A DNA stretch of 19,919 bases from a virus (taxonomy: Duplodnaviria; Heunggongvirae; Uroviricota; Caudoviricetes), in the IMG/VR virus record IMGVR_UViG_2737471827_000004; one strand, written 5' to 3'. The translations under genes and the position numbers were made by a program. Below, one piece after another: positions 7,445 to 19,914 of the stretch; positions within the stretch are counted from its first letter, which is position 1, and every line of letters begins with the position of its first letter. The notes beneath the pieces were generated by a model. The model was not told the DNA's origin. It was given only the letters and a program-made list of their open reading frames with translations, and did not search any database.

Positions 7445-8464
7445 TTATTCAGAAAAAGTGAGTAAGACTTTGCAGCAATGTTTTTGATCCTGTTCAAATA
7501 AACTAATGGCATCAGCAACATGCTGGAAATCAAACGTATGGGTAATTAATTTTTCTGGTTTAATTAACCCTTTACTTAACCAGTCGATAACAACCGGAAA
7601 TTTATTTGCATTTAAGCGTGAAGAGAAAATAGAGAGTTCTTTTCCGGTAATTCCTTGCTGAATCACTTCAGACGGTTCACTGGAGAAGCCCATCAATACA
7701 ATACGTGCCGCTGGAGAAGCCAGCGTTACGGCCTCTTTCAGGATAGAAGGATGACAAGCCGCATCGATAATTAATGTCGGCTTGATGCCTTTTTCAGCGA
7801 AAATCTCGCCAAGCGGTGTCTGGCTGTTATTAATCGCCCAGTCTGCCCCGCTCTCTTTCGCTTTTTCCAGTCGTTCATCAATGCGATCGGCAACAATCAC
7901 ATTTTTAACGTTATAGACGCCTTTTAATACCTGAACGATCGTCAGGCCGATTGGACCGGCACCATAAACCAGAACGGTATCATTTTCAGTCGGTTGACCA
8001 TGACCGGTAACGTTAGCCGCAATGGTAAAAGGTTCGATCATCACCGCATATTGATCGGCCACTGCTTCAGGAATTTTCCACGCATTTTTTGCCGGAACCA
8101 CGGCATATTCACTGAAACCACCGTCAGCGTGCACACCTAATACAGCAAGTGTCGTACAAACGTTCGGCTTACCTATAGAGCACGGATAGCAATGCCCACA
8201 GCTGACCACCGGATCGACAGCAACGCGTTCACCGACTCTGGCGCTTTCCACACCTTCACCCACCGCATCAATGACGCCAAAGAATTCATGACCAATGACG
8301 CGCGGATATTTCGCAAAAGGATTATGCCCACGGTAAATATGGCTATCTGAACCACAAATTCCGGCAAGTTTCACTTTTACTCGTACTTCACCCGCTGACG
8401 GGGTGGGTATTTCACGTTCGATAATCGACAGTTGATTCGGTTTTTCAATTAAAATGCTTTTCAT
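7445..8464 (-). CDS. rspB: Starvation-sensing protein RspB (Zn-dependent alcohol-dehydrogenase family oxidoreductase)
   Basis: Start moved to ATG 8464 (MKSILIEKPNQL...), AAGGAG RBS 7 nt upstream. GICGSDSH zinc-ADH signature and Rossmann motif (LVYGAGPIG). Confidence 0.9.
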   Translation of the reverse strand: MKSILIEKPNQLSIIEREIPTPSAGEVRVKVKLAGICGSDSHIYRGHNPFAKYPRVIGHEFFGVIDAVGEGVESARVGERVAVDPVVSCGHCYPCSIGKPNVCTTLAVLGVHADGGFSEYAVVPAKNAWKIPEAVADQYAVMIEPFTIAANVTGHGQPTENDTVLVYGAGPIGLTIVQVLKGVYNVKNVIVADRIDERLEKAKESGADWAINNSQTPLGEIFAEKGIKPTLIIDAACHPSILKEAVTLASPAARIVLMGFSSEPSEVIQQGITGKELSIFSSRLNANKFPVVIDWLSKGLIKPEKLITHTFDFQHVADAISLFEQDQKHCCKVLLTFSE

Positions 8465-8475
8465 TACCTTACTCC

Positions 8476-9690
8476 TTACCAGTTCCACAGCGTGCCATCT
8501 TCCAGACGTGCGACTGGCAGATAAGCAGGTTCATAGGGATATTTCGCCGCCAGCTTTTCATCGAATTCGATGCCAAGACCCGGTTTGTCTCCCGGATGCA
8601 TATAGCCGTTATCGAAAGTCCAGTTGTGCGGGAAGACTTCGAGCATTTGTTCGGAATAACCCATGTACTCCTGGACACCGAAATTGGGGACCCACAGATC
8701 AAAGTGCAGCGCCGCAGCCATGCAGACTGGTGACAAATCGGAAGGACCGTGTGAGCCAGTACGTACCTGATACAGCGAAGCAAAATCGGCAATCCGGCGC
8801 ATACCGGTAATTCCGCCTGCATGGGTCAGCGTGGTGCGGATATAATCGATGAGTTGCTCTTCAATCAGTTGTTTGCAGTCCCAGATGCTGTTGAAGACTT
8901 CACCCACTGCGATGGGTGTGACGGTATGTTGGCGAATGAGACGGAAGCATTCCTGGTTTTCCGCAGGCGTCGGGTCTTCCATCCAGAACATGCGATAATC
9001 TTCAATGCTTTTACCAAAGCGCGCCGCTTCAATAGGCGTTAAGCGATGGTGCATGTCATGCAGCAAATGTTCATTAAAACCAAACTTGTTACGTACCGCG
9101 TCAAACAATTTCGGCATGAAATCGAGGTATTTCTCCGTCGACCACAGCTGCTCTTCCGGCCACTGTCCTTTGGTTGCGGGTTCATAAGCCAGACCTTTAC
9201 CTTTCGACATGCCGTAGGTGGTTTTCATACCAGGGATTCCGCACTGCACGCGGATGGCTTTGAATCCCAGCTCCTGATGACGGGCATAATCATCCAGAGC
9301 TTCATCAATACTGTGACCGGTGGTATGGCAATAAACCATCACCCCTTCACGAGACGCGCCGCCGAGTAACTGGTAAAGCGGCATGTTGGCAGCTTTGGCT
9401 TTAATATCCCACAGCGCCATATCAACCGCTGAAATGGCCGACATCGTAACCGGACCGCGACGCCAGTAAGCACCTTTATAGAAAAACTGCCAGATATCTT
9501 CGATACGGTGCGCATCGCGACCAATAAGCTGCGGACAAAGGTGATCCTGCAAATAAGAGGCCACGGAAAGCTCACGTCCATTGAGGGTGGCATCCCCAAG
9601 GCCCGTAATACCGTCCTCAGTGGTGATTTTTAATGTGACGAAATTACGCCCCGGACAGGTAACAAAAACTTCAGCCTTTACGATCTTCAT
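8476..9690 (-). CDS. rspA: Starvation-sensing protein RspA (enolase-superfamily mannonate dehydratase-like)
   Basis: Start at ATG 9690 ([14 protein letters not shown]...), AAGGAA RBS upstream; 404 aa. The rspB RBS lies within the rspA 3' end, so the two form an operon. Confidence 0.9.
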
Positions 9691-9895
9691 GTTCGATTCC
9701 TTGCATCGCTTGTCGTGATGCATGAAATCTACGCAACTGAGCTACTACCATACAAGTATGAAGATCGAAAAAAGCCGGAGTGATCACAAAAAAAGGCGTA
9801 TATTTGCGCTGTGAATGGTTGACAAAAGATGAAATAGAATACCTTTTGTCAGCTGACACTTCCTCTTATCTTATTGATAAAATGGATTTATGTTC

Positions 9896-14027: not shown

Positions 14028-14268
14028 TTCAAGGACTTGAAGCGGACCCTTAGTAGGCCTGAGGTCCTGCATTGAGTCAAGACCTTGTGTCATTCTTTGT
14101 GCCAGACTTGTGTCATTAGACGGGATGTCTAGACGGCTGGTCAGGACCCTCCGGTGGCCTTGGTATGGACTTGAGGCGGGACTATGGGGGAAGTCTGCTG
14201 GCTTAATGTATTAGATGGTCATTCACATTTTTCTGTCAGAAACCATCGGTCCCACTGTGAGTCCAAAC

Positions 14269-14424
14269 CTAAGGACCTAGAAGTCCACCCACAGCCTTAG
14301 ACAGAGTGTCGAACACATCCACACCGAGTCGACCAGAGAGGACCATGTAGAGACCCACAGAGAGGAACACGAGTTTATAGACCAGAGTCAGGAGGGACTT
14401 CAGGTCTGCGGAAGTCATAGACAT
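14269..14424 (-). CDS. 51-aa single-pass membrane protein (holin-like or small membrane toxin-like), unassigned
   Basis: ATG at 14424 with AAGGAGG 5 nt upstream. MSMTSADLKSLLTLVYKLVFLSVGLYMVLSGRLGVDVFDTLSKAVGGLLGP has one roughly 21-residue hydrophobic helix. Last gene of the cassette. Confidence 0.5.
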   Translation of the reverse strand: MSMTSADLKSLLTLVYKLVFLSVGLYMVLSGRLGVDVFDTLSKAVGGLLGP

Positions 14425-14496
14425 TTGGCCCTCCTTATCTTGTATACTACCATACCAGAAATAAGGCCCAGACCCGAAGGTCCAGACCATAGTTAG

Positions 14497-15483
14497 TTAG
14501 TTGGTCTCAGTAAAGCTCAGGCGTTTGACTACAGGCAGGACAGCAGTAGCACTACCAGTACCCATCTTGATTGTCGTAGCAGCTTCAGCGACCACGAAGA
14601 CCTTGCCGAGGATTTCTAGGTCGTGAGACTGAGAGTCGCCATCTCTGGATAAGACCACGGTAATGTTCTCACCATCATGACGGAAGCAGCTGAAGCTCAG
14701 GGCCGTAAAACGCTTAGCCATCATGAACACACCACGGTCCTCACCGTTGTAATACGCGATGTCGGTACCCAGCATATCCACGATAGCGTCTTCGCCACCG
14801 AAGCCCTGCTTAGCAGCCAGACGGGAGAGAGCCTTGAGGTGTGACTCATGGGCGATAATGCCGTAGTCAGAAACCTCAGTACCGAAAGAAGACTCGGTGT
14901 TCTCATACAGGGCATCCATGATAGCGTCAGCCTTAGCGGTCAGGCTACCAGTCAGGACCGGAAGCTCTACAGTCTTCAACAGCTTGGAGGATTCCAGTAC
15001 ATCGACCATGCGACTATTGATGGTACGGACCACGTTATCGCAGATGTTCAGAGCGTCCTGCTGGAGCGTCCCCTGAGTGAAACCAGTGGAAGACTTAGCG
15101 TCCCACAGCTTGGTTTGATGTGATACGAGGATAGCCTGTTCAATCGGCTCCACGGTGATTTCAGTGCCGGACGGAGCGGTCACGACTTCAGGTCGCTTGC
15201 CACCACGGACAGGGACCAGCACAGAGCGGTCAGCCAGAGTGTGAGCAATGATTGGAGTCGGTAAGCTGTTACGGGTCGGCAGGACTTCTACAGGGAACGG
15301 GATGTTATCTTGAGCGTCTTTAAGCACACCATTGAGCATCGTCTTAACCAGCTTAGCCAGCTCAAGGGCGTAGACCTGAGGGTCTGCGTTAGTTGGCAAA
15401 CCTTCGTTAATCTGAATGTTGTCGGTGTCGGTGATACGTACTGGCTCAATGCCGAACTGGAAAGCGTCTTTAGTCATAGTCAT
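14497..15483 (-). CDS. 328-aa hypothetical protein, unassigned
   Basis: Long ORF with AAGGAGA RBS 9 nt upstream. Codon usage rich in GCT/GGT/CGT/AAG/GAC, as in highly expressed coliphage genes. No catalytic motif recognised and no Walker A. Confidence 0.6.
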   Translation of the reverse strand: MTMTKDAFQFGIEPVRITDTDNIQINEGLPTNADPQVYALELAKLVKTMLNGVLKDAQDNIPFPVEVLPTRNSLPTPIIAHTLADRSVLVPVRGGKRPEVVTAPSGTEITVEPIEQAILVSHQTKLWDAKSSTGFTQGTLQQDALNICDNVVRTINSRMVDVLESSKLLKTVELPVLTGSLTAKADAIMDALYENTESSFGTEVSDYGIIAHESHLKALSRLAAKQGFGGEDAIVDMLGTDIAYYNGEDRGVFMMAKRFTALSFSCFRHDGENITVVLSRDGDSQSHDLEILGKVFVVAEAATTIKMGTGSATAVLPVVKRLSFTETN

Positions 15484-15566
15484 GATAATTAATCTCCTTG
15501 AGTCAAATACTTGAAGTCCCTAACGGTAAGTCAGGGACCGTGTGTTCTTAGATGAGGGTCGCTTGC

Positions 15567-16058
15567 TTACAAGCAGTCCATCCAGTTAGCGCCACTATCG
15601 AGGTCAGCCATAATTGAAGCCTTGGAACGACCAGCGGAATGGGTAGCACTGCGGAGGTTCTCACCATAGGTCCGGCGTTCAGCTTTGACCTGTTCACGGC
15701 GCTGTAGCTCTTTCTGCCACTCTGCATCGGTCATGTTCTCTTCACGCATACGCTCAGCCTGAAGTCGTTGCTCTTTAGCGATACGCTCAGCCTCAGCTCG
15801 TTTGTTAAGCTGGCGGCGACCATAGGCGGTCATCAGGTCATTACTGAAGAAGTTACCAATGGTCACGCCAGCTTCAGCAAGAGCTTCCAGTAACTCCATT
15901 GCTTCGCGGCTGGTGGATGGCAAGCCTGACAGATACCCCGGAATGAGGGTCTTGATAGCGAGGGACAGCGGATAGGACTGATCGTCCAGACTCACAGTAT
16001 TCTCGTAGAGATTGATGTCGGTGACTGACAGCTTCCAGTTGTTGTTGTTGAATAACAT
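15567..16058 (-). CDS. 163-aa hypothetical protein with a highly charged predicted coiled-coil segment
   Basis: AGAGGAG RBS 7-8 nt upstream. Charged segment RRQLNKRAEAERIAKEQRLQAERMREENMTDAEWQKELQRREQVKAERR. Confidence 0.55.
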   Translation of the reverse strand: MLFNNNNWKLSVTDINLYENTVSLDDQSYPLSLAIKTLIPGYLSGLPSTSREAMELLEALAEAGVTIGNFFSNDLMTAYGRRQLNKRAEAERIAKEQRLQAERMREENMTDAEWQKELQRREQVKAERRTYGENLRSATHSAGRSKASIMADLDSGANWMDCL

Positions 16059-16200
16059 AAGTTGGTACTCCTCTTGAGAAGGTGAGAACTATCGGTATCG
16101 CAGACACAGTTATGCCTACGGGTCTCCCCGCATCGGTCATTCTCAAAAGGTGTTTAAATTAAGGTATTGAGTAGGTGAGCTGCTAACGGTTAGGAGACAG

Positions 16201-16413
16201 CTAGCTTACTAGCGACAGTTTCATAGCGACCAGTTGCGCTATCAGCTCGTCTCGGGATTGGTGCTGGCGGGTCTCATCTTCCGGGTCTAGACCAAGCTCC
16301 TTCAGGAGGAATTCAGTCCGATAGCCACGGTAACGGAGAGTCATGCGACCCTCAGGTGTGCGCGGGTCAACCATAGGTCTTTGGGAGACCATAGGTCTTT
16401 GGTTAGTCATCAT
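16201..16413 (-). CDS. 70-aa hypothetical protein with a tandemly duplicated N-terminal heptapeptide
   Basis: Start 2 nt after the stop of the upstream gene. Contains the 18-bp tandem repeat at 16371-16406 (encodes QRPMVS-QRPMVD). Confidence 0.45.
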   Translation of the reverse strand: MMTNQRPMVSQRPMVDPRTPEGRMTLRYRGYRTEFLLKELGLDPEDETRQHQSRDELIAQLVAMKLSLVS

Positions 16414-16415
16414 TG

Positions 16416-16676
16416 TTAGAAGTCCTCGTTAGACCAATCATCCACGTCAAATTCACTGGTGATAGGCGCTTGGAAGTCAGGTAGACCCTCTGGTATATCT
16501 AGCGGCAGTCGCTCGTCGACTCTCAGTGCCATCTCTTCGTATATATGCCGAAGCAGAGAAGTCAGTAAGATATGGTCCGCAGGATGCTCATGGTCGTATC
16601 TCTCAATGAAACATATGGTTGTCGCTATTGACTTCATAATCAGTTCATCAGTAAGTCGGTTGGAATCCATAGTCAT
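16416..16676 (-). CDS. 86-aa strongly acidic protein (about 20 Asp/Glu vs 5 Lys/Arg), unassigned
   Basis: Start 1 nt after the stop of the Rha-like gene (TAA-G-ATG). MTMDSNRLTDELIMKSIATTICFIERYDHEHPADHILLTSLLRHIYEEMALRVDERLPLDIPEGLPDFQAPITSEFDVDDWSNEDF. Confidence 0.55.
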   Translation of the reverse strand: MTMDSNRLTDELIMKSIATTICFIERYDHEHPADHILLTSLLRHIYEEMALRVDERLPLDIPEGLPDFQAPITSEFDVDDWSNEDF

Positions 16677-16677
16677 C

Positions 16678-17388
16678 TTAGAGTCCCTTCTGCTTGCCGG
16701 ATTTGGCTTGCTTCAGGAGGTATTCCTGCTTCTGCTGGTCGGTGCCAGTGAATGCAATAAGGATGCCTTTCATCTTGTCAATCGTCTCAGGTCTACCGAA
16801 GACCTCCAGTCCCTTAGCGTTGAAGCGAAAGTTATAACCACCTGCTGAGAACTTCTGGTCTGACGGCTTAATGATACGGAAGCAGTCGGAATACTTTGGA
16901 TTTACAGACCACTCGTTACTGATTGGATTCTTACGAAAGAGACCACGATGCTGAAGAAGTGCGGTCATTAGCTTCTGAGCAGGTAGACCATAGGTTTTGC
17001 AGTAGTCACCCCAAGTCACGCCTCGACGGTTAGCGGACTGAATTGCTGCTCGCTTCTTCTGGTCTTCCAGTAACTGCTTGTCCTTCTCAATTCGTCGGAT
17101 GTATTCAAGGACTTTGCGACGCACAGCTTTAGACTCACGCATACCGACCAATAGTAGTTGGTCTCCGTTAAGGATAGTGTGAGAGGATTTACGTCCAGAA
17201 GCGCCCGTGTCTAATAAAAGGAAATTTTCCTCTTTTAAATCCAGCTCATCCTTCACGCGATTGATGAAGTCCTTATTACTGACGGGATTCTCCCCGGCCT
17301 CTTCACGGGCAGGATTGATAACCTTGGTCAGGAACTCATAGGAAGACAGAGAGAACTCATCGTTAAAGATGACTACTTGTTGAGACAT
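16678..17388 (-). CDS. Rha/antirepressor-like phage regulatory protein (236 aa); C-terminal half unassigned
   Basis: Track ORF 16678-17601 has an implausible N-terminal extension. ATG at 17388 (MSQQVVIFNDEF...) has a perfect AAGGAG 8 nt upstream. The N-terminal region (LLLDTGASGRKSSHTILNGDQLLLVGMRESKAVRRKVLEYI) resembles the N-terminal DNA-binding domain of Rha/Ant-type phage proteins; this is a family-level impression. Confidence 0.5.
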   Translation of the reverse strand: MSQQVVIFNDEFSLSSYEFLTKVINPAREEAGENPVSNKDFINRVKDELDLKEENFLLLDTGASGRKSSHTILNGDQLLLVGMRESKAVRRKVLEYIRRIEKDKQLLEDQKKRAAIQSANRRGVTWGDYCKTYGLPAQKLMTALLQHRGLFRKNPISNEWSVNPKYSDCFRIIKPSDQKFSAGGYNFRFNAKGLEVFGRPETIDKMKGILIAFTGTDQQKQEYLLKQAKSGKQKGL

Positions 17389-17957
17389 ATCGTTGTACTC
17401 CTTTTTGTTATGCCTCCTGAAGTCACACCCTGAGAGCCTACTCAAGCCCCCAACGATAGGGAGACTCACAGGCAACAGGAGACATACAGAAAGACTTGAG
17501 GTGATGATGAGGTCGTGTGAAGACCAGAGATGATGGTGGTGGTGGTGACTGCTCAGTTTTGAGCGCGTTAAGTTCTTCGACCATAGAGACGAAGGTTGCA
17601 AGACCGCATGTCAGGACGAGCTGTAAGGACTCCAGATGGTGAGCGGTGATAGACTTAAGCCAATGTAGTGAGTAGACGAGCTACTAACTGAGATGACTGA
17701 AGAACGCTAACGAGCTGGAGGTCGATACACGAGGTCTGACAGAGGCGGTCTTCCTACCAGTGATAGTTAAGCCCTACCACTGGTCATACATACCCAACCT
17801 CAAGCAACGACCCAATGTATACAGGGTCCCGATGCTTTGAGCTGGAGACTGACGGAGCTATCGTCGACCCCATGGTTGAGGAAGACACATAGAAGGAATG
17901 AGGTCTGACTTAAGTCTGGACTATAGGTCTTATATTAATCTTCATAAGAAGATAATA

Positions 17958-18008
17958 ATTAACTTAGAGTCATAACTTCAGTCTTACTTAGAGTCTTAAC
18001 TTTAAGTC
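17958..18008. repeat. Array of four imperfect ~11-bp direct repeats (ACTTAGAGTC / ACTTCAGTC / ACTTAGAGTC / ACTTTAAGTC) in an AT-rich stretch
   Basis: Read directly from the sequence. Lies in the 767-bp non-coding region between the HNH gene and the Rha-like gene. A palindrome GACTTAAGTC sits at about 17909-17918, and a C7-T-C6 tract at 18024-18037. Confidence 0.6.
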
Positions 18009-18155
18009 AGCATCTATGGTCTGCCCCCCCTCCCCCCATTGCTGGAAGGAGAGGCGGTAGTGTCTGCCATTTTCCCTATACTGATAATTTAGCACCCTCC
18101 TCTACAGACCAGACGCACCAAGGCCTACAGAGGCGCTCTAAGTTAGCAACCGTCA

Positions 18156-18890
18156 TCAAACCACCACAGACTCTTCGTCGATGTAGTGCTTCTTGTTCAG
18201 CTTCTTAAAGTAGAGACGCCCAGTTTTAGGCTCAATGTAGACTTTCAGTCCATCATGCGTCTTAGCGTAGCCGGGTAAACGTCGCTTCCTTGGTTTATAC
18301 CCTTCAGGCTTGGACACCTCGTAGCGCTCGTCAGCTCGCTTCTGGTCTGCCTCTGTCCAGTCGGTCCACCCATCGTAGGCGAATTCACCGTGTAGCTTCT
18401 GACGCTGTTCCTGTAGCCAGACCATAAGCTCCCTGACCTCATAAGAGAGTCTCGCCCGGACCTTGCCGTCTATCTTAATACGCGCTCTGTAGCGACCCTC
18501 AGCTTTTACAAAGTCAATCCCTTTCGGCAAATAGTTCTGAAGTTTGCCTCCAAGGTTGTCTCTGTTCCACTGGTTCTGCTGTGGTGTAACTAGGCGCAGG
18601 TTGTCAGGATGGTCATTGAGTCGGTTACCGTCGATATGGTCAACGAACATTCCCTCAGGGATGTGACCCTTACACAGGCTGTAGATGACTCTGGAGCGAC
18701 GATAGCGCTTACCCAGTACAGAGACAGAGGCATAGCCATTTTGATGCACATAGAAGCTAACAGGCTCTCCTGTGGCGCGTTTAGATTGGCCGTAAGGTGT
18801 CTTGACTCGGAGTAGCTGAGGAATGGTTGGGTCAAAGGTGTAATGGTCGTACAGTTTGATTCGGTCTAGTGGCTTGGCTGGTCGGCCCAT
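18156..18890 (-). CDS. HNH endonuclease (244 aa), homing-endonuclease-like
   Basis: HNH motif VDHIDGNRLNDHPDNLRLVTPQQNQWN, flanked by basic beta-rich segments (GYASVSVLGKRYRRSRVIY; GRYRARIKIDGKVRARLSY) as in the DNA-binding modules of phage HNH homing endonucleases. Start ATG at 18890 is only 7 bp from resumed ynfE sequence. Confidence 0.8.
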   Translation of the reverse strand: MGRPAKPLDRIKLYDHYTFDPTIPQLLRVKTPYGQSKRATGEPVSFYVHQNGYASVSVLGKRYRRSRVIYSLCKGHIPEGMFVDHIDGNRLNDHPDNLRLVTPQQNQWNRDNLGGKLQNYLPKGIDFVKAEGRYRARIKIDGKVRARLSYEVRELMVWLQEQRQKLHGEFAYDGWTDWTEADQKRADERYEVSKPEGYKPRKRRLPGYAKTHDGLKVYIEPKTGRLYFKKLNKKHYIDEESVVV

Positions 18891-18897
18891 GATGGAT

Positions 18898-19914
18898 ACC
18901 CTCGTTAATCAGCATTCTGACATCAACAAAACGCATGAAATTCTGCAGGACGAATCGAAATGCGAAATGATTGTGATCATCGAAAACTTTATGACCTCAT
19001 CGGCAAAATATGCCGACATTCTGCTGCCAGACCTGATGACCGTTGAGCAGGAAGATATTATTCCTAACGACTACGCCGGTAACATGGGATATCTCATTTT
19101 CCTCCAGCCTGTCACCAGCGAAAAATTCGAACGCAAACCGATTTACTGGATCCTGAGTGAAGTCGCGAAACGTCTTGGACCTGACGTCTATCAAAAGTTC
19201 ACAGAAGGTCGCACGCAGGAACAATGGTTACAACATCTGTACGCCAAAATGCTTGCCAAAGATCCGGCGTTACCGTCTTACGACGAACTGAAAAAAATGG
19301 GTATCTATAAGCGTAAAGATCCCAATGGCCATTTTGTCGCCTACAAAGCATTTCGTGACGACCCCGAGGCAAATCCACTTAAAACGCCTTCCGGTAAGAT
19401 TGAAATTTATTCCAGCAGGCTGGCGGAAATTGCCCGTACCTGGGAACTGGAAAAAGATGAAGTGATAAGCCCATTGCCAGTTTATGCCTCAACCTTTGAA
19501 GGCTGGAACTCCCCTGAACGTAGAACCTTCCCACTGCAACTGTTTGGTTTCCATTACAAATCCCGTACTCACTCGACCTACGGCAATATTGATCTCCTGA
19601 AGGCTGCCTGCCGTCAGGAGGTGTGGATCAACCCTATAGATGCGCAGAAACGTGGGATTGCCAACGGCGATATGGTGCGGGTGTTTAACCATCGTGGCGA
19701 AGTTCGGCTACCAGCCAAAGTAACACCACGTATTCTCCCTGGAGTTAGCGCTATGGGCCAGGGAGCCTGGCACGAGGCCAATATGTCTGGCGATAAAATC
19801 GACCATGGCGGCTGTGTGAATACGCTAACCACTCTGCGCCCTTCACCACTGGCGAAGGGAAACCCGCAGCACACTAATCTGGTCGAGATCGAAAAAATAG
19901 TAAGCGTAAACTGA
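18898..19914 (+). pseudogene. ynfE: ynfE 3' fragment (C-terminal 338 codons plus stop)
   Basis: In-frame continuation TLVNQHSDINKTHEILQDESKCEMIVIIENFMTSSAKYADILLPD... to the stop at 19912-19914. The MIRSSGLAGRPMMD prefix of the track ORF is read-through of junction and insert sequence. Confidence 0.85.

Follow-up and report, generated by a model that had tools for sequence, protein, structure and literature searches.

A small acidic protein encoded in an island within Escherichia coli ynfE has a T7 gp4-like tail and may be a mimic that engages phage DNA polymerase

We analyzed a stretch of 19,919 nucleotides (IMG/VR record IMGVR_UViG_2737471827_000004), here called the window, which corresponds to the speG-ynfC-ynfD-ynfE-ynfF region of Escherichia coli with ynfE split by a 4.8-kb insert, the ynfE island. 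The subject is an open reading frame (ORF) of this island that encodes an acidic protein of 86 amino acids (aa). In the original prediction, this ORF was taken for an early phage gene encoding a candidate DNA mimic or anti-defense protein; the early-phage setting did not hold, since the ORF sits in an island interrupting a bacterial gene and not in a phage genome. The extreme C terminus of the protein resembles that of gp4, the primase-helicase of phage T7, and we tentatively propose that the protein mimics the gp4 tail and engages the DNA polymerase of a helper phage. Relatives of the island used for comparison are designated L001 to L004, L006 to L013, and L090 to L093. The island, the acidic gene, and the predicted parts of its product are as follows.

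14030 to 18909, no strand assigned: island inserted in ynfE; the N-terminal part of ynfE ends at about 14030 to 14075, and the C-terminal part resumes at 18896.
16416 to 16676, minus strand: gene for the 86-aa acidic protein, with an ATG start and the TAA stop codon at 16416 to 16418; an optional cassette of the island.
16512 to 16664, minus strand: predicted helix-turn-helix hairpin, residues 5 to 55 (helices at 5 to 27 and 32 to 55), from an AlphaFold2 (AF2) model with a predicted local distance difference test score (pLDDT) of 70 to 84.
16455 to 16511, minus strand: proline-rich linker RLPLDIPEGLPDFQAPITS, residues 56 to 74, from the alignment with L006, which has ISLELPEGLPNYQAPVTS.
16419 to 16454, minus strand: acidic, gp4-like tail EFDVDDWSNEDF-COOH, residues 75 to 86, predicted to be disordered (pLDDT of ~50).

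The acidic gene is packed closely between its neighbors. The TAA of an upstream gene for an Ant-like regulator (16678 to 16680) is followed by one G and then by the ATG of the acidic ORF (16676 to 16674), and reading TAA-G-ATG confirms exactly the 1-nt spacing that had been claimed. A Shine-Dalgarno-like GAAGGGA lies 7 nt upstream of the start and is conserved, and the next gene, encoding a 70-aa protein, begins 2 nt past the stop. The Ant-like gene, the acidic gene, and the 70-aa gene are thus one tightly coupled unit. The upstream gene had been described as Rha-like; its antirepressor character was upheld (PHROG 10324, "anti-repressor Ant," E = 1.5e-30; weak Pfam ANT/KilAC match, E = 0.028), but the window copy has no pRha domain, and it is relatives of the island that carry a Phage_pRha N terminus (E = 6e-18) or KilA-N at the regulator position. 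The protein contains 11 Asp and 9 Glu, giving the 20 acidic residues originally counted, together with 4 His and 6 basic residues (1 Lys, 5 Arg) rather than about 5, so that the net charge is −14 and not −15 (−14.1 at pH 7; isoelectric point [pI], 4.24). The acidic C-terminal tail was present as claimed: the translated ORF ends in ...ITSEFDVDDWSNEDF, with the tail peptide SEFDVDDWSNEDF, and its last 17 residues have a net charge of −6 and close with Asp-Phe.

The acidic ORF is no longer annotated in RefSeq by the Prokaryotic Genome Annotation Pipeline (PGAP; "none" under all 7 hits among complete E. coli genomes). Nevertheless, it is a real gene under selection, beyond a chance reading frame. 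The island lineage L006, which has diverged to 73% DNA identity although it is set between E. coli flanks that are 99 to 100% identical, retains an ORF of 86 codons in the corresponding position, and all indels relative to the window copy are in frame. Between these two copies, the synonymous divergence (dS) of the acidic ORF was ~1.05 and the ratio of nonsynonymous to synonymous divergence (dN/dS) was 0.22 to 0.28, close to the values of the flanking genes (0.14 to 0.54 for the 70-aa gene and 0.10 to 0.33 for a neighboring gene encoding a 163-aa protein). Among close copies, nonsynonymous differences were distributed unevenly, with 7.5 to 14 per ~100 sites in the N-terminal half and 1 to 2.5 per ~91 sites in the C-terminal half. 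These substitutions cluster at residues 4 to 8 and 27 to 36, such that the first helix and the loop of the hairpin differ, and residues 48 to 86 are near-invariant. The dS of the acidic gene among close copies (0.05 to 0.13) was lower than most values for the flanking genes (0.32 to 1.38 for the 70-aa gene; 0.19 to 0.41 for the 163-aa gene), which suggests recent exchange of the acidic gene between islands.

The distribution of the gene is narrow and patchy. A word-indexed search of 5.8 billion proteins returned matches solely in E. coli and Shigella, at 81% identity or higher, and the protein cluster is present on 385 contigs; of 5426 complete E. coli genomes, only 7 have the gene. When 1.84 billion representative proteins were searched exhaustively with a profile, the sole additions were a true but diverged homolog (P0009, from L006) and fragments. 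By these searches, the 86-aa protein is an orphan, belonging to no described family. Positions 16375 to 16672 of the window form a clean 298-bp indel relative to L003, where the same Ant-like gene leads straight into the small conserved gene and the acidic gene is absent; among KilA-N-type islands, the gene is present in L006 and L007 and absent in L002; and four island copies in IMG/VR are without it. The acidic gene is therefore an optional, rapidly exchanged cassette.

The AF2 model of the 86-aa protein is of moderate confidence overall (pLDDT of 68) and falls to ~48 to 60 over residues 57 to 86. The predicted hairpin, which is possibly self-associating, holds 11 acidic and 6 basic residues, and the last 30 residues hold 9 acidic residues and none that are basic. 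The C terminus resembles that of T7 gp4 (SESTDWSNDTDF in gp4; EFDVDDWSNEDF in the 86-aa protein), and the two align as ...SGEEESHSESTDWSNDTDF-COOH in gp4 and ...APITSEFDVDDWSN-EDF-COOH in the 86-aa protein. In short form, TDWSNDTDF-COOH in gp4 is set against DDWSNEDF-COOH, which conforms to the signature D-W-S-N-x(1-3)-D-F-COOH. The string DWSN and the DF ending are shared with gp4. More generally, the protein has the flexible acidic C-terminal segment ending in Phe that is typical of the tails of gp4 and of gp2.5, the single-stranded DNA-binding protein (SSB) of T7, sharing with them a position at the extreme C terminus, predicted disorder, acidity, a Trp 6 to 7 residues from the end, and Asp-Phe-COOH. 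The gp2.5 tail is functionally interchangeable with that of gp4. The 86-aa tail differs from that of gp4 in being one residue shorter between the Asn and the Asp-Phe, and from both T7 tails in being borne by a hairpin protein rather than by a helicase or an SSB with an oligonucleotide-binding (OB) fold. Since no helicase or SSB domain was found in the 86-aa protein by Pfam or in the AF2 model, this stand-alone hairpin is at most a mimic and not a member of either family.

We asked how specific this likeness is. Among 66 relatives of gp4, 48 end in Phe or Tyr, and 12 of these 48 also carry Asp or Glu at −2, contain a Trp somewhere in their final 12 residues, and have a net charge no higher than −4 (for example, ...TDWSNDSDF, ...SSSWDNNEDF, and ...SGSWEGNDF); the tail of the 86-aa protein shows every one of these features. 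An unbiased search for DWSN-x(1-3)-DF followed by a stop codon across 2.9 million contigs of IMG/VR gave 27 in-frame matches. On frames open for at least 100 codons, 14 of 15 matches were gp4 itself, at least 92% identical to that of T7, and the remaining matches were spurious frames of 10 to 57 codons. The exact ending DWSNEDF-stop had no match in IMG/VR, and no real protein with a DWSNEDF ending was found among 185,579 species-representative GTDB genomes. When aligned from the C terminus, the 86-aa tail matched the gp4 tail better than composition-preserving shuffles did (P = 0.001 to 0.007), but the same test gave P = 0.14 to 0.24 for the gp2.5 tail and P = 0.19 to 0.34 for the tail of E. 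coli SSB. The low P values are specific to gp4, indicating that residue order matters beyond composition.

Previous work has shown that the 17-residue gp4 tail binds the front and thioredoxin-binding-domain basic patches of T7 DNA polymerase, that these contacts mediate recruitment, loading, and exchange of the polymerase, that the gp2.5 tail rivals the gp4 tail for the same sites, and that removal of the gp4 tail lowers processivity approximately threefold while synthesis persists (PMC8472574, PMC12593628, and bioRxiv 10.64898/2026.05.20.726333). We therefore favor, tentatively and with a confidence that stays short of an even chance, a reading in which the 86-aa protein is a gp4-tail mimic engaging the DNA polymerase of a helper phage; the binding, the target, and the consequence are inferred. 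The protein would be a small adaptor or decoy, in which the hairpin carries the linker and a disordered, gp4-like tail on free-standing display. Upon infection by a T7-like phage, it would be coproduced with the Ant, Rha, or KilA-N regulator encoded upstream, and its tail would take the basic patches of the phage DNA polymerase (gp5/thioredoxin) or another partner of such tails. This could either interfere with helper replication, through competition with the phage helicase and SSB, or tether the polymerase to the benefit of the island.

Several observations fit this proposal. E. coli is host both to the island and to T7-group phages; the island carries T7-type genes (see below) but no replication genes of its own; and a freely exchanged cassette whose N-terminal half diversifies while its tail stays fixed is likewise in keeping with it. 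The proposed role is also akin to that of helper-interference proteins of satellites, in that a small accessory protein of a phage-parasitic island is predicted to bind a specific helper protein. Examples are Ppi of Staphylococcus aureus pathogenicity islands (SaPIs), which blocks the helper TerS, NixI of PLEs (elements resembling phage-inducible chromosomal islands), and Psu and Sid of P4; however, the 86-aa protein has no sequence relation to them. In the searchable literature, we found nothing on a decoy of T7 DNA polymerase, and the literature searched held no description of a satellite that targets a replicative polymerase through helicase-tail mimicry.

Other observations weigh against polymerase engagement. 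The likeness to gp4 was spotted post hoc and spans only ~8 residues. The sole diverged homolog, that of L006, ends in SAYDVWPGGF, keeping the Trp and the terminal Phe but losing DWSN and the acidity, and this type of tail (DVWPGGF-stop) had no match in IMG/VR. It is the linker, with the motif PEGLPxFQAP(I/V)TS, and not the tail that is the best-conserved segment between the two diverged lineages, and the linker may be the primary interaction motif; the pattern PEGLP[DN][FY]QAP had no match in the T7 proteome or in IMG/VR. In addition, T7 replisomes without the tail are still processive, albeit at a reduced level, and a pure decoy would therefore weaken replication rather than block it. The T7-like proteins of the island are only ~37 to 40% identical to those of T7, and the helper phage is putative. 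Finally, the acidic gene is dispensable for the island and is missing from most island copies.

Among the alternatives, the one that survives best is that the 86-aa protein acts within the island, as partner or modulator either of the Ant, Rha, or KilA-N regulator or of the assembly proteins, with the likeness to gp4 being incidental. We consider this unlikely. In such a role, the acidic tail and the linker would attach to an island protein at a surface that is basic or binds DNA, examples being anti-antirepressor, chaperone, and timing functions. Translational coupling of the acidic gene in three N-terminal-domain contexts (Ant-like, Rha, and KilA-N) is consistent with such a partnership, as is the fact that the PEGLPxFQAP linker and the hairpin, but not the tail, are shared between the lineages. 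However, the acidic gene is missing from sister islands that have the same Ant-like or KilA-N gene (L003, L002, and L090 to L093), so the acidic protein is no obligate partner, and a gp4-specific tail is left unexplained.

Rather less probable is the original idea that the protein mimics DNA, here as an anti-restriction or anti-defense protein like Ocr, ArdA, or gp5.9 that would shield the island or its helper from host nucleases. This is attractive given the extreme acidity (net charge of −14; pI 4.2) and the location in a variable accessory cassette of a mobile element, and the protein is indeed like Ocr (T7 gp0.3) and ArdA in its small size, its strong acidity, and its origin from a mobile element. 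DNA mimicry is within reach of small, acidic helical dimers, T7 gp5.9 being one. No homology or fold similarity to Ocr or ArdA was detected. The 86-aa protein had no match in Pfam (Ocr and ArdA included; E ≤ 0.1), PHROGs, NCBIfam, or PADLOC, nor in a sequence search of the PDB, and the profile of its family matched the T7 proteome (54 proteins, including Ocr and gp5.9) only at E > 1, with Ocr at E = 1.4. Foldseek against the PDB and BFVD returned generic helical hairpins only (best E = 0.79) and no DNA mimic, and when 50,697 phage genomes were searched by tblastn with the protein and with its tail, only chance matches appeared (E ≥ 2). Structure prediction, which had been suggested as a check for a DNA-like charge pattern, also spoke against the idea: the AF2 hairpin has a net charge of only −5, and 9 of the 14 net negative charges lie in the disordered tail, where there are 9 acidic and no basic residues. 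Most of the net charge is therefore off any rigid DNA-shaped surface, whereas Ocr and ArdA reproduce the phosphates of double-stranded DNA on a rigid surface. Furthermore, the gene lies outside the early or leading region of a phage or plasmid and in an integrated, satellite-like island instead. What is retained of the original prediction is mimicry by a small acidic mobile-element protein directed at a nucleic-acid enzyme, an idea sharpened by the match to the gp4 tail, and what is given up is mimicry of double-stranded DNA; a decoy or recruiter of phage DNA polymerase is more likely than an Ocr-type mimic.

Improbable, too, is mimicry of the C-terminal tip of the host SSB, by which the protein would sequester exonuclease I, RecQ, PriA, or the chi subunit of DNA polymerase III. 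An acidic tail that ends in Asp-Phe with FDxDD upstream is suggestive of such a tip, and some tails of the gp4 family end in ...DDIPF as SSB does (P0029), so the tail classes overlap. However, as noted above, the alignment to the E. coli SSB tail was no better than that of shuffles, the defining Ile-Pro-Phe tip is absent from a tail that ends in Asn-Glu-Asp-Phe, and the DWSN match is specific to gp4. We regard as very improbable that the ORF is non-functional, a chance frame or a decaying remnant: the missing RefSeq annotation, with which such a reading would be consistent, and a dN/dS near 1 among very close copies (from small counts) would allow this, but purifying selection relative to L006 at dS near 1, the retention of frame, length, and coupling with in-frame indels only, the conserved Shine-Dalgarno site, the strongly constrained C-terminal half, and the cluster's presence on 385 contigs oppose it.

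The other features of the island are listed here in the order of their coordinates.

14269 to 14424, minus strand: hydrophobic (membrane) protein of 51 aa at the island end; sequence conserved in L003, L007, and L012.
14497 to 15483, minus strand: candidate HK97-fold major capsid protein, 328 aa.
15567 to 16058, minus strand: probable scaffolding protein, 163 aa, with a charged coiled-coil segment; the role is suggested by its place directly upstream of the capsid gene.
16201 to 16413, minus strand: conserved small protein of 70 aa (55 to 75 aa across variants), found in all island variants.
16678 to 17391, minus strand: Ant-like regulator with a KilAC-type C-terminal domain, 237 aa; true start MSQQVV; coupled to the acidic ORF.
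17392 to 18155, minus strand: noncoding region (~760 bp), a candidate regulatory region or origin, with an AT-rich stretch and two 17-nt repeats (AAGTTAWGACTCTAAGT).
18156 to 18890, minus strand: HNH endonuclease of 244 aa, a homolog of T7 gp3.8 (HNH_3, E = 5e-15; 37% identity to gp3.8, E = 2e-21).

In other strains, the insert is 6.7 to 7 kb, starts with a tyrosine integrase of 530 to 540 aa, and is always in ynfE, a gene listed by the TIGER study among those interrupted by an integrative element (PMC7192596). One strain in which the island is intact is E. coli L73 (NZ_CP033378). A segment corresponding to L001 positions 8012 to 9812 (~1.8 kb; the tyrosine integrase and the junction) is deleted in the window, with a 14-bp overlap at 18896 to 18909. 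The window island measures 4.8 kb because of this loss of the integrase, and it is probably immobile.

Homologs of three T7 proteins mark the island as T7-related. In addition to the gp3.8 homolog, some copies encode a 79-aa homolog of gp7.3 (E = 4e-8 against the T7 proteome; Pfam VirionAssem_T7, 25.3 bits, which reaches the gathering score), whose gene lies between the capsid and 51-aa genes in L002 and L003 and is missing from the window copy. The larger copies (L012 and L013) encode a 1314-aa homolog of gp16, at 38 to 40% identity over its full length (~1300 residues). The 169-aa variant of the scaffold-like protein weakly matched Pfam T7_gp14 (E = 0.033). Hidden Markov models (HMMs) of the 163-, 328-, 70-, and 51-aa proteins had no match in the T7 proteome, and PDB profile searches returned no match for the 328-aa protein and one weak, uncharacterized match for the 163-aa protein. 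In E. coli and Shigella, ~2500 sequences belong to the cluster of the capsid protein, and relatives occur in Citrobacter and Rouxiella.

Some virion genes are thus present in the island (the capsid candidate, with gp7.3- and gp16-like genes in larger variants) without a complete phage set. Portal, protease, terminase, tail, polymerase or other replication, and lysis genes were not found in islands of 4.8 to 13 kb, and neither the capsid protein nor the acidic protein occurs in any sequenced phage searched (the 50,697 genomes mentioned above for the acidic protein). The simplest reading of this gene content is that the island is probably a satellite-like element parasitizing T7-like phages. A full temperate T7-like prophage was considered as the context and rejected: in the largest variants, too, the regulator is followed by the scaffold-like gene with no portal in between, and gp11 to gp15 are missing between the capsid and gp16. 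The ynfE island is similar to capsid-forming phage-inducible chromosomal islands (cf-PICIs) and other phage satellites in being small, with an integrase in other copies, with its own capsid and scaffold-like protein and with Ant/Rha-type regulators, and in having no replication or lysis module. It differs from cf-PICIs in that no portal, protease, or terminase is evident, its phage-like genes are of T7 type (gp3.8, gp7.3, and gp16), it integrates inside ynfE, and it is only ~7 to 13 kb.

In the searchable literature, we found nothing on a satellite of T7, a satellite in ynfE, or the function of the ynfE element. That small acidic proteins of mobile elements work by mimicry is a known concept; the target and mode proposed here, and a capsid-encoding, T7-related island, appear to be undescribed. 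Taken as a whole, the most far-reaching version of the proposal is one that we consider doubtful. In it, the ynfE island would be the first satellite, or phage-parasitic island, of virulent T7-like coliphages, the optional 86-aa protein would be a satellite effector of a new kind, a free-standing helicase-tail mimic that captures or jams the helper polymerase, and the tails of the two lineages (DDWSNEDF versus VWPGGF) would be adapted to different helpers. If true, mimicry of a replisome docking tail would be a novel means by which a genetic parasite seizes or cripples another, directly testable in the T7 replisome, the best understood one, and it would suggest that strictly lytic T7-like phages have satellites in E. 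coli. The peptide could then serve as a specific inhibitor of, or handle for, T7-family DNA polymerases, and T7-like therapeutic phages might fare differently on strains that bear the island. Should the protein merely be an island-internal regulator, the interest would be modest and local.

A number of smaller features were noted in and around these genes. In the larger copies, a second gp3.8-like HNH gene (240 aa) directly follows the gp16-like gene (7926 to 8648 in L012; 7730 to 8452 in L013), placing an HNH gene near both island ends. Upstream of the Ant-like gene, a 150-bp leader (17384 to 17534) is 79 to 99% identical across variants with different regulator genes. On the minus strand, this leader contains a run of CAC/CAT codons (17500 to 17560), which reads as HHHHHH in a TTG-started frame at 16678 to 17601; lying upstream of the true Ant start, the run is probably noncoding. 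Farther into the noncoding region, at 17940 to 18010, two 17-nt direct repeats, AAGTTA(A/T)GACTCTAAGT (family D16), lie 24 nt apart beside the AT-rich stretch. They hold the GACTC core of T7 promoters without the rest of the consensus and are candidate operators, origins, or RNA polymerase binding sites. T7 or T3 consensus promoters were absent from the window within 3 mismatches, sigma-70-type promoter-like sites numbered 0 on both strands of 14050 to 18950 (4.3 ± 1.9 expected from shuffles), and Rfam returned only sub-threshold noise on the island.

Two further observations concern the 70-aa gene. The 70-aa protein owes its N-terminal repeat, QRPMVSQRPMV, to a tandem duplication of 18 bp at 16369 to 16413 (GACCATAGGTCTTTGG...). 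This duplication coincides exactly with the border of the 298-bp cassette indel, is not found in islands without the acidic gene, and may be a recombination scar. Between the 70-aa and scaffold-like genes, on the minus strand at 16060 to 16165, a long irregular hairpin with an internal loop (CCUUUUGAGA...UCUCAAGAGG) is kept in the diverged L006 copy (8455 to 8555), with changes in the upper stem (z scores of −2.8 and −2.6); it is similar to the sites at which RNase III processes RNA between T7 genes.

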